Assembly (NCBI GenBank): GCA_013388845.1
Contig: JACAEN010000016.1
Coordinates: 21,898-85,897 of the forward strand
From: Chloroflexota bacterium
GTDB taxonomy: Bacteria; Chloroflexota; Dehalococcoidia; GIF9; AB-539-J10
DNA: 64,000 nucleotides
Direction: 5' to 3'
Shown: one piece after another, positions 32,305 through 53,656 of the stretch
Numbering within the stretch: position 1 is the first letter of the stretch
Layout: every line of letters starts with the position of its first letter
Translations under genes and position numbers: made by a program
Notes under the pieces: model-generated
The model's input: only the letters and a program-made list of their open reading frames with translations
Told to the model about the DNA's origin: nothing
The model's database searches: none

Positions 32305-32326
32305 GGTTCAGACTTGTGACTTGCCA

Positions 32327-32584
32327 ATGGATAAAACTTTGTACTTCGTCTATGTCCTGCGAAATCCTCAAGGTCGATTGTACGTGGGCTTTACCACCGA
32401 CTTAGAGAGGCGTGTCCGTCAACATCAGGAAGGCGAGGGTGGCTGGACTCATAGCCGTGGTCCATGGGAGTTAGTTCACTTTGAGGGCTTCACCACGCGG
32501 GCAGAGGCTCTGCGGCGAGAGCGTAATTCGAAGCGTGGTAAAACAAACCAAGAACTTCGGGAGCGTTTTAGCGGAGTTAGGTAG
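32327..32584 (+). CDS. Stand-alone GIY-YIG nuclease (85 aa), linked to tRNA-Asn
   Basis: VYVL...LYVGFTTDLERRVRQH...EALRRE. Stop codon lies in the D-loop of the downstream tRNA copy. Confidence 0.9.
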   Translation: MDKTLYFVYVLRNPQGRLYVGFTTDLERRVRQHQEGEGGWTHSRGPWELVHFEGFTTRAEALRRERNSKRGKTNQELRERFSGVR

Positions 32585-35643: not shown

Positions 35644-35739
35644 CTCTAGATCCTTTTTGCTTAGTATAGCAATTCTGCCATAAATTCAACAGCATAAAGC
35701 TTTTGCTAGCACACAGTATTTGATACAATAATTAACGTT

Positions 35740-35812
35740 GGGGCTGTAGCTTAGCTGGGAGAGCGCCTGCTTTGCAAGCAGGAGGTCAGGGGTTCGAATC
35801 CCCTCAGCTCCA
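35740..35812 (+). tRNA. tRNA-Ala(TGC), CCA not encoded
   Basis: GGGGCTG/CAGCTCC acceptor with G3:U70, loop TT-TGC-AA. Confidence 0.97.
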
Positions 35813-35823
35813 TTCACGTCGAT

Positions 35824-36072
35824 ATGTTTTATGCATATATTCTTCAAAGTGAGACAGGTAATCGATATTACATTGGTTCTACAAAGGATCTATCTCGTAG
35901 AGTAATTGAGCATAATCGAGGAAAAAGCAACTCAACAAAGCCTTATCGTCCCTGGAAGCTGGTGTATTGCGAGTGTTTTCAAACTCTGGCCGAAGCCAGA
36001 CAAAGAGAACAAGAGATTAAATCGTGGAAAAGTCACGAATATCTGAGAAAAACGCTTGGATTGAACGCTTAA
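35824..36072 (+). CDS. Stand-alone GIY-YIG nuclease, copy 1 (82 aa)
   Basis: FYAYILQS...YYIGSTKDLSRRVIEHN...PWKLVY.E.F....EARQREQEIK. Confidence 0.92.
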   Translation: MFYAYILQSETGNRYYIGSTKDLSRRVIEHNRGKSNSTKPYRPWKLVYCECFQTLAEARQREQEIKSWKSHEYLRKTLGLNA

Positions 36073-36131
36073 TCAGGCAGAGCGTCCCGATTGCATCGGG
36101 GAGGTCAGGGGTTCGAATCCCCTCAGCTCCA
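36057..36131 (+). pseudogene. Degenerate tRNA-Ala copy 1 with rewritten anticodon stem
   Basis: D-arm gctt-aatcaggca-gagc, arm tcccg-attgcat-cgggg, T-arm and 3' acceptor identical to tRNA-Ala. Confidence 0.85.
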
Positions 36132-36142
36132 TTCACGTCGAT

Positions 36143-36375
36143 ATGTTTTATACATATATCCTTCAAAGTGAGACAAGTAATCGATATTACATTGGTTCTA
36201 CAAAGGATCCATCCCGTAGAGTAATTGAGCATAATCGAGGAAAAAGCAACTCAACAAAGCCTTATCGTCCCTGGAAGCTGGTGTATTGCGAGTGTTTTCA
36301 AACTCTGGCCGAAGCCAGACAAAGGGAGCAAGAGATTAAATCGTGGAAAAGTCACGAATATCTGAGAAAAACGCT

Positions 36376-36391
<16 letters not shown>
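36143..36391 (+). CDS. Stand-alone GIY-YIG nuclease, copy 2 (82 aa)
   Basis: Near-identical to copy 1 (A4T, G12S, L23P). Confidence 0.92.
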
Positions 36392-36453
<62 letters not shown>

Positions 36454-51870: not shown

Positions 51871-52278
51871 CGGGCAAGCAAACCTGTAAGCCGAGTTCTG
51901 TCCCCCGACCGAGTCGGGGTGGTGACCATCCATCTAGCCCCGATGTTACCATCGAGGTCAAGCGACCAACCCGAGGGCTTCGGCCGAGCGCCTTAGACTC
52001 ACCCCAGAGTCTTGAGACTTTGGAGCAGTTGAGCCCTCTTATTCGGTCTTGCTCCGGGTGGGGTTTGCCCAGCCAGCCAGTTTCCTGGTTGCTGGTGAGC
52101 TCTTGCCTCACCATTTCACCCTTACCCGCACCCCGATGCCATCAGGGCCGCTGGCGGTATGTTTCTGTGGCACTTTCCGTAGGGTCTCCCCTCCTGGGTA
52201 TTACCCAGCACCCTGCTCGGTAGAGCTCGGACTTTCCTCCCCGATTGTATCGGGGCGGTCACCCGGTTTACTTGCCCG
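51871..52278 (-). ncRNA. rnpB: RNase P RNA (type A)
   Basis: GAGGAAAGTCCGAGCTC, GAAAGTGCCACAGAAA, ACAGAACTCGGCTTAC. P1 cgggcaagtaaacc/ggtttgcttgcccg. Confidence 0.96.
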
Positions 52279-53565: not shown

Positions 53566-53656
53566 GGAGGGGTGACCGAGTGGCTTATGGTGGCGGTCTT
53601 GAAAACCGCTCCCCGACAAAGTCGGGGCGTGGGTTCGAATCCCACCCCCTCCGCCA
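53566..53656 (+). tRNA. tRNA-Ser(TGA)
   Basis: GCGGT-CT-TGA-AA-ACCGC, variable arm ccccgac-aaa-gtcgggg, CCA. Confidence 0.96.

Follow-up and report, generated by a model that had tools for sequence, protein, structure and literature searches.

The RNase P RNA gene analysed here carries the same GC-rich stem, CCCCGA/UCGGGG, in two of its helices, P3 and P19, and this stem is also that of a short hairpin repeat dispersed through the genome. The locus therefore raises the question of whether copies of a genomic repeat have taken the place of helices in an essential RNA, or whether these helices came to resemble the repeat through ordinary sequence change. The window, i.e. the whole 64,000-nucleotide stretch of DNA that was analysed, belongs to a 1.38-Mb metagenome-assembled genome (MAG) of an uncultured Dehalococcoidia in 52 contigs, referred to here as G000, with the genomes used for comparison numbered in the same way. 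Its minus-strand rnpB gene (51871..52274) encodes a full-length RNase P RNA of bacterial class A and matches Rfam RF00010 at 52274-51871 with 292.7 bits over model positions 1-367 (E 1e-94), as compared with a gathering score of 100. Both P4 strands of the class, GAGGAAAGUCC and ACAGAAC-CGGCUUA, were found and aligned to RF00010, and the score over the full model together with these conserved strands places the gene in class A as a normal and functional-looking RNase P RNA. The P3 hairpin, CCCCGAU-ACA-AUCGGGG (52239..52255, minus strand), aligns to the P3 pairs of RF00010 directly 5' of GAGGAAAGUCC, and the P19 hairpin, CCCCGAC-UCG-GUCGGGG (51903..51919, minus strand), falls between P2-3' and ACAGAACUCGGCUUAC (P4-3'), as P19 does in type-A RNAs. 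Each folds into a stem of 7 bp capped by a 3-nt loop, at -11.2 kcal/mol for P3 and -13.1 kcal/mol for P19. The RF00010 alignment and the folds thus bear out the original prediction that these are two same-stem hairpins within RNase P RNA, helix assignments included.

Within the window, the pattern CCCCGA-N5-TCGGGG occurs four times, at P3, at P19, in the variable arm of a tRNA-Ser and in the anticodon stem of a tRNA-Ala-like sequence, as compared with no occurrences in 100 shuffles. Across G000, the pattern CCCGA-N2-6-TCGGG was found 125 times and the reversed control pattern 5 times, and the 404-nt rnpB contains two hairpins where random placement predicts 0.037 (P ~7e-4). Based on these shuffle, genome-control and random-placement comparisons, the P3 and P19 hairpins exceed chance expectation. 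The family unit is 15-17 nt long and GC-clamped, with the core CCCGAY-loop-RTCGGG. Approximately 25 of the G000 copies are embedded as cores in longer nested palindromes of the form GTCATT[CG]..core..[CG]AATCTC, and approximately 100 are solo hairpins; the 17-mer of one nested copy (G000:C42:26224) is identical to P3. The hairpin family is real and lineage-specific. Among the 52 species of the genus, hairpin counts range from background to 125 with many congeners enriched, and all 67 genomes from the family's remaining genera were at background, without enrichment. Only seven genomes of a second family are clearly enriched (G141, G168, G037, G180, G196, G197 and G200).

With family membership taken as CCCGA/TCGGG arms, a 2-6-nt spacer and usually a 7-bp stem, P3 and P19 are exact members, and sequence comparison and folding add the tip of P12 (CCCUGAU-GGC-AUCGGGG, 52131..52147, minus strand) as a family-type hairpin with one U.G wobble. 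This tip and the tRNA-Ser variable arm are further copies that the original prediction overlooked. P18 of G000 (window 51938-51957) reads CCUCGAU-GGUAAC-AUCGGGG, as compared with CCCUGAU..AUCAGGG in congeners; it was considered as a family hairpin and rejected, since this is a conserved helix with a GGUAAC loop in which one pair has changed in a compensatory manner, i.e. ordinary covariation, which brings the stem nearer to that of the repeat. Between P15 and P18 lies a helix extension of ~34 nt (CUCAACUGCUCC...GGGGUGAGU, window ~51990-52030, minus strand) that is found in most rnpB genes of the genus and is missing from G063, G053, G048 and nearly all other genera, and which is thus another block that is either present or absent in rnpB. 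No nuclease ORF or long insert was found in any rnpB of the order, all of which are ~350-410 nt in length.

Across the 47 rnpB sequences extracted from the genus, P3 occurs in two discrete forms, a 22-nt form (CCCUGG-10 nt-CCAGGG) and the 17-nt hairpin. A long P3 of 20-22 nt is found in most congeners and in all outgroups, whether these belong to the same family or to other families, and the hairpin P3 is therefore the derived state. The exact form fused to the P4 strand (CCCGA-N-TCGGGG followed by AGGAAAGTC) was found in 6/202 genomes of the order, five of which are hairpin-rich and spread over three genera, namely G000 (125 hairpins), G056 (41), G063 (56), G141 (61) and G180 (118). Of these, G141 and G180 represent two other genera in another family, and hairpin-poor congeners of G141 (G145, G039 and G029) and of G180 (G179) have the old P3. 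The loops of the hairpin P3 vary (ACA, AUA, AAA and GAU), which argues for independent events. The sixth genome, G190, has 20 hairpins as compared with 26 matches for the control, and its rnpB locus (G190:C45:55080-55560, locus L171) has family-type P3 and P12 tips despite this background count. This rnpB is 91% identical to that of the hairpin-rich G037, placed in another genus by GTDB, and its tips may be either the relic of a lost hairpin family or part of a mis-binned contig.

When 'rich' genomes were defined, post hoc, as those with at least 40 copies and at least three times the control count, exact P3 was found in 5/25 rich and 1/177 other genomes (Fisher P = 1e-4, or P = 0.007 with one event counted per genus). 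In a comparison restricted to the genus, whose members are phylogenetically non-independent, the median hairpin count was 56 where the P3 or the P12 tip is of the exact family type and 27 in the remaining genomes (Mann-Whitney P = 0.002). The relation between P3 form and hairpin load is an association and is not deterministic; G013, G017, G024, G049 and G001 are hairpin-rich congeners that still have the long P3. The derived state, the concentration of exact copies in rich genomes and the old P3 of their poor congeners are as anticipated by the original prediction that the repeat stem replaced P3 in repeat-rich lineages.

The P12 tip likewise occurs in two discrete forms within the genus, a 13-nt form (CUGGCUUAGCCAG) in 34/46 rnpB genes and the family-type CCCCGAU-NNN-AUCGGGG in 12 members, with the exact CCCCGAU-GGC-AUCGGGG found in G013 and G017. 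Outgroup P12 tips are short or unrelated, some resembling the 13-nt form, and the hairpin P12 tip is therefore also derived. Family-type P12 tips are found in G037 and G190 of another family as well, where the tips of their relatives are unrelated. At both P3 and the P12 tip, occupancy by the hairpin is derived, lineage-specific and absent in hairpin-poor relatives.

Beyond rnpB, the hairpin is found in tRNA and 23S rRNA. A tRNA-Ser(UGA) gene identified by ARAGORN (53566..53656, plus strand) lies ~1.3 kb from rnpB and is syntenic with it in most congeners; its variable arm (53611-53627, plus strand), located by pattern match, reads CCCCGAC-AAA-GUCGGGG. Outside the variable arm this tRNA is nearly invariant in the genus, and the arm occurs in three discrete forms (CCCCGAC..GUCGGGG, CUCCGAU..AUCGGAG and UUCGCC..GGCGAA), the family hairpin being found in G000, G065, G018, G063 and a few more. 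A recent swap of the arm between G013 and G017 was considered and rejected, as the loci are only 93% identical. Outside the window, a 1.8-kb piece of 23S rRNA (RF02541; G000:C52:9250-11063, locus L173) has three family-type helix tips, CCCCGAUUUAAUCGGGG, CUCCGAUAAUAUCGGAG and CCCCGAUUAUUAUCGGGG, one of which is a CUCCGA variant. In G061, G004 and G048, at an overall identity of 94%, each of the three sites has a different sequence that these genomes have in common, so that the family type is found only in G000, where one of the tips is 11 nt shorter. Since the 23S tips and the tRNA arm also have the hairpin, helix-tip replacement is not peculiar to rnpB but is general in G000.

The best explanation for these observations, to which we assign a probability of roughly 60%, is that the distal parts of P3 and P12 were exchanged en bloc for genomic copies of the hairpin. 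The sequence comparisons show that the hairpin form at these two sites arose repeatedly and independently in hairpin-rich lineages. The event proposed is a DNA-level process that would turn a short stem-loop already in place into a copy of the family hairpin and remove the old tip, as opposed to a simple insertion. There was no added length of the kind left by miniature transposable (MITE) or Rickettsia palindromic (RPE) elements: the old tip is gone and length often drops, from 22 to 17 nt at P3 and by 11 nt at the one 23S tip, so that the change is not a MITE-like insertion. Selection would then act such that only swaps at structurally permissive tips survive, and the resulting helices would go on to evolve by ordinary compensatory change, as in the P3 of G003 and G014, which reads CCCCAAU..AUUGGGG. 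The evidence fits tolerated replacement at permissive helix tips and does not extend to a gain of function or to the 'domestication' originally proposed. There are caveats to this reading. The order's ancestral P3 and P19 stems (CYCYGR.../...YCRGRG) were already hairpin-like, and a few substitutions with loop shortening could yield part of the similarity; further, recombination of rnpB alleles within the genus could spread a single origin.

The pattern at P19 is different. Here too there are two discrete forms in the genus, a 12-nt form (CUCC-AUGU-GGAG) and CCCCGAC-NNN-GUCGGGG, with the long 17-nt P19 found in 32/46 rnpB genes and the exact stem in 20/47. The latter include hairpin-poor genomes in which the hairpin count is at background when compared with the control (8 as compared with 9 in G002, 4 with 11 in G015, 14 with 12 in G005 and 15 with 10 in G021), and intermediates of the stem with U.G pairs (CUCCGAC..GUCGGGG) are found in G023, G003 and G014. 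In the remaining genera of the family, P19 is mostly a short helix of 4-5 bp, the hairpin-poor G082 has CCCUGA-UAUUU-UCGGGG, and the second family has 6-7-bp stems of the type CYCYGN/NCRGRG, such as CUCCGA..UCGGAG and CCCUGAC-UCU-GUCAGGG; stems of this type occur in hairpin-poor genera of two families. The CUCCGA form of the outgroups was considered as a member of a hairpin family of their own and rejected, as CTCCGA-N-TCGGAG is not enriched there. With the exact stem found in hairpin-poor congeners and related stems elsewhere, P19 lacks the derived and lineage-specific distribution seen at P3. Given the stems of this type in hairpin-poor lineages, the P19 stem is therefore a widespread and probably older stem type of the order, in which a single compensatory change of a base pair would give the exact match to the repeat, and it needs no replacement. 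The original proposal that P19 was also replaced by the repeat stem is accordingly not supported by the exact stems at background hairpin levels and the related stems of hairpin-poor genera. The check proposed with the original prediction was whether this stem is adopted at P3 and P19 only where the lineage is rich in the repeat, with the same stems in relatives lacking the repeat named as the counter-evidence; this is supported for P3, where five of the six exact copies are in rich genomes, and fails for P19, where the stem is found in repeat-poor relatives as well.

The observations at P19 also speak for an alternative in which all of these helices arose by ordinary helix evolution, i.e. compensatory drift and loop deletion leading to a stable, GC-clamped triloop, with the match to the repeat being ancestral resemblance or coincidence. 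The P19-like stems CUCCGA/UCGGAG and CCCUGA/UCAGGG of hairpin-poor genera, the U.G intermediates, the exact P19 of the four hairpin-poor congeners and the compensatory change in P3 after its acquisition in G003 and G014 are each consistent with such a process. However, it leaves unexplained the presence of one 7-bp stem at P3, the P12 tip, three 23S tips and the tRNA arm of one genome, the occurrence of exact P3 almost exclusively in hairpin-rich genomes of three genera, and the existence of rnpB backbones that are 97.6% identical and yet differ simultaneously at all tips. As an account of the whole pattern, ordinary helix evolution is therefore unlikely.

The last of these points concerns the mosaic arrangement of the tips. 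Of the eight P3/P12/P19 tip combinations, six were seen within the genus, and G063, with three family-type tips, is 97.6% identical outside the tips to G044 and G001, which have none. On 1000 bootstrap trees of the tip-masked rnpB backbone, the minimum numbers of state changes were four for P3, six for P12 and seven for P19. These changes, taken with the near-identical backbones, show that whole tips are exchanged far more rapidly than the backbone itself changes, either through repeated conversion or through short-patch recombination. There were no observed instances of a swap between near-identical relatives; in the nearest relative, G065, with a backbone identity of 94%, P3, P12 and P19 are already near-family. 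The mosaic is an argument for a second alternative, in which each family-type tip arose once and was then spread or removed via short-patch homologous recombination among co-occurring species, with no role for the repeat family. Consistent with this are the six combinations with at least four switches per tip on the backbone tree, the apparent 'reversions' to an identical long P3, which require a donor allele, and the identical P3 17-mer found in G000 and G056, which are in different clades. However, the hairpin also appears independently, with different loops and in very different backbones, in genera g6 and g42 and in the G037/G190 lineage, and shuffling of alleles leaves unexplained the identity of the stem across helices and RNAs, such that we regard it as improbable.

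We consider about equally improbable a third alternative, in which selection acts at the level of RNA and the hairpin is a protein-binding or protective motif that was convergently recruited into stable RNAs, the genomic copies being other targets. The excess of hairpins in stable RNAs over the prediction from random placement and the conservation of the stem relative to the variable loops could both be expected in this case. However, most G000 copies occur, in both orientations, in DNA that is protein-coding or intergenic, and the ~25 nested palindromes are of a DNA type; further, many hairpin-rich genomes have no hairpin in rnpB, and no candidate RNA-binding partner was found.

The polarity of the tip changes rests on the rnpB backbone tree and on contrasts between genera. 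The MAGs G049, G048 and G011 each have two different rnpB genes, one of the G049 copies being of another family's type, which signals mis-binned contigs and means that species-tree comparisons within the genus need care. An RpoB tree (FastTree) was considered for polarising the tips and was not relied on because of its several weak backbone nodes and the mis-binning of MAGs; discordance between RpoB and rnpB, as in G053 and G059, which have nearly identical RpoB and different rnpB, is unsafe to interpret. Artefacts of metagenome assembly or binning, to which the two-copy genomes and the G053/G059 pair might point, are very improbable as the source of the pattern, given that the hairpins are part of the sequence proper in dozens of independent assemblies and that the mosaic is found inside a single 400-nt gene and is thus independent of binning.

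Returning to the block exchange of P3 and P12 tips for hairpin copies, a candidate partner for such a process is found in the small stand-alone GIY-YIG nucleases. Four small ORFs of this type (~82-87 aa, PF01541) are present in G000, three of which are within the window on the plus strand: an 87-aa ORF at 32321..32584 (E 5e-17), a candidate partner nuclease, and two 82-aa ORFs at 35824..36072 (E 4e-17) and 36143..36391 (E 1e-17). The latter two belong to an array (window 35739-36450) in which a tRNA-Ala is followed by two tandem units, each of an 82-aa GIY-YIG ORF and a weak tRNA-Ala-like copy. In these copies the anticodon stem is the family hairpin and the UUGCA loop is kept, as in the low-scoring copy at 36377-36450 (tRNA model 38.1 bits), whose family-type hairpin lies at 36404..36420 on the plus strand; the family hairpin with a UUGCA loop is found at five places on the contig of the window. 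On contig C6, a GIY-YIG ORF (1334-1552) lies between two nested SRM-like CCCGA-core repeats (1204 and 1591; G000:C6:1204-1610). Within the genus, hairpin count correlates with the number of GIY-YIG matches (Spearman 0.58, among related genomes); across the order, genomes poor in hairpins, G039 and G029 among them, commonly have small GIY-YIG genes too. A link between the hairpin family and small stand-alone GIY-YIG nucleases, as candidate Ssn-like enzymes, is plausible. The conversion is probably linked to these nucleases and to the longer SRM-like repeats with the same core, and probably acts on the single-stranded DNA of heavily transcribed RNA genes. The broader proposal, that GIY-YIG-linked hairpins spread by hairpin-to-hairpin conversion, with the terminal helices of essential and highly transcribed RNAs among their preferred targets, and selfishly rewrite tips of RNase P RNA, 23S rRNA and tRNA across genera, is put forward tentatively, as a possibility that we consider less likely than not. 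If true, it would be a way of propagating repeats that has so far gone undescribed.

Several known systems share features with the one described here. Short repeats are not without precedent in variable helices of RNase P RNA: Vioque reportedly described, in 1997, STRR heptamer repeats in helix P12 of the RNase P RNA of heterocyst-forming cyanobacteria. In both cases, lineages with a genome-wide short repeat have it built into a variable helix of RNase P RNA; however, the cyanobacterial repeats are tandem heptamers that lengthen P12, whereas here single hairpins replace P3 and P12 tips and are also found in rRNA and tRNA. A reading of the present gene as a cyanobacterial rnpB with HIP/STRR-type repeats was considered and rejected, as the genome is that of a Dehalococcoidia MAG of 1.4 Mb. 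Rickettsia palindromic elements have been described within the M1 RNA (RNase P RNA) gene and the tmRNA gene (Ogata et al. 2002, reviewed in PMC2229807), and are similarly a dispersed palindromic family found inside an essential RNA gene and protein genes and apparently tolerated there (PMC2229807). They differ in being ~100-150 nt long and in adding length, whereas the unit here is 15-17 nt, the old tip is replaced (with P3 becoming 5 nt shorter) and the same helices are hit in several genera. The nested repeats can be compared with NTS/SRM hairpin repeats, which are present in hundreds per genome and often flank the small gene of a single-strand-specific Ssn GIY-YIG nuclease with which they occur (Chenal et al. 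2025, PMC11893778). The GTCATT[CG]...[CG]AATC arms of the ~25 nested G000 repeats resemble the NTS consensus, and the GIY-YIG gene of contig C6 is placed between two nested repeats as is the case for ssnA homologues (PMC11893778). However, the rnpB hairpins are bare cores without the GTCATTC...GAATC arms and lack the oriented flanks given there for such hairpins of ~30 nt, and the sections of that paper drawn on here describe no replacement of helices in RNA genes (PMC11893778). Finally, non-intron insertion sequences encoding GIY-YIG proteins have been found in CPR bacteria, inside rRNA genes (Tsurumaki et al. 2024, PMC11270868), where a GIY-YIG-linked sequence likewise lies at the tip or the base of stem-loops in structural RNA genes; these inserts are hundreds of bases long and carry an ORF, in contrast to the Chloroflexota RNA gene studied here, which has neither an ORF nor added length (PMC11270868). 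What is new relative to these systems is the very small unit, replacement as opposed to insertion, the same helices being hit in several Dehalococcoidia genera, and the quantitative link to hairpin load.

The usual view of variable helices, in RNase P RNA as in rRNA, is that they change through slow compensatory drift or through insertion. Here, the tips of three essential RNAs appear to have been swapped as blocks for one genomic repeat, in a manner that tracks repeat load. If this reading is correct, it would provide a concrete and testable route from selfish hairpin repeats to core RNA structure. Helices of this kind would then be poor phylogenetic characters, and the combination of a tiny nuclease and a 17-nt hairpin would offer a natural system in which the spread of repeats could be studied.
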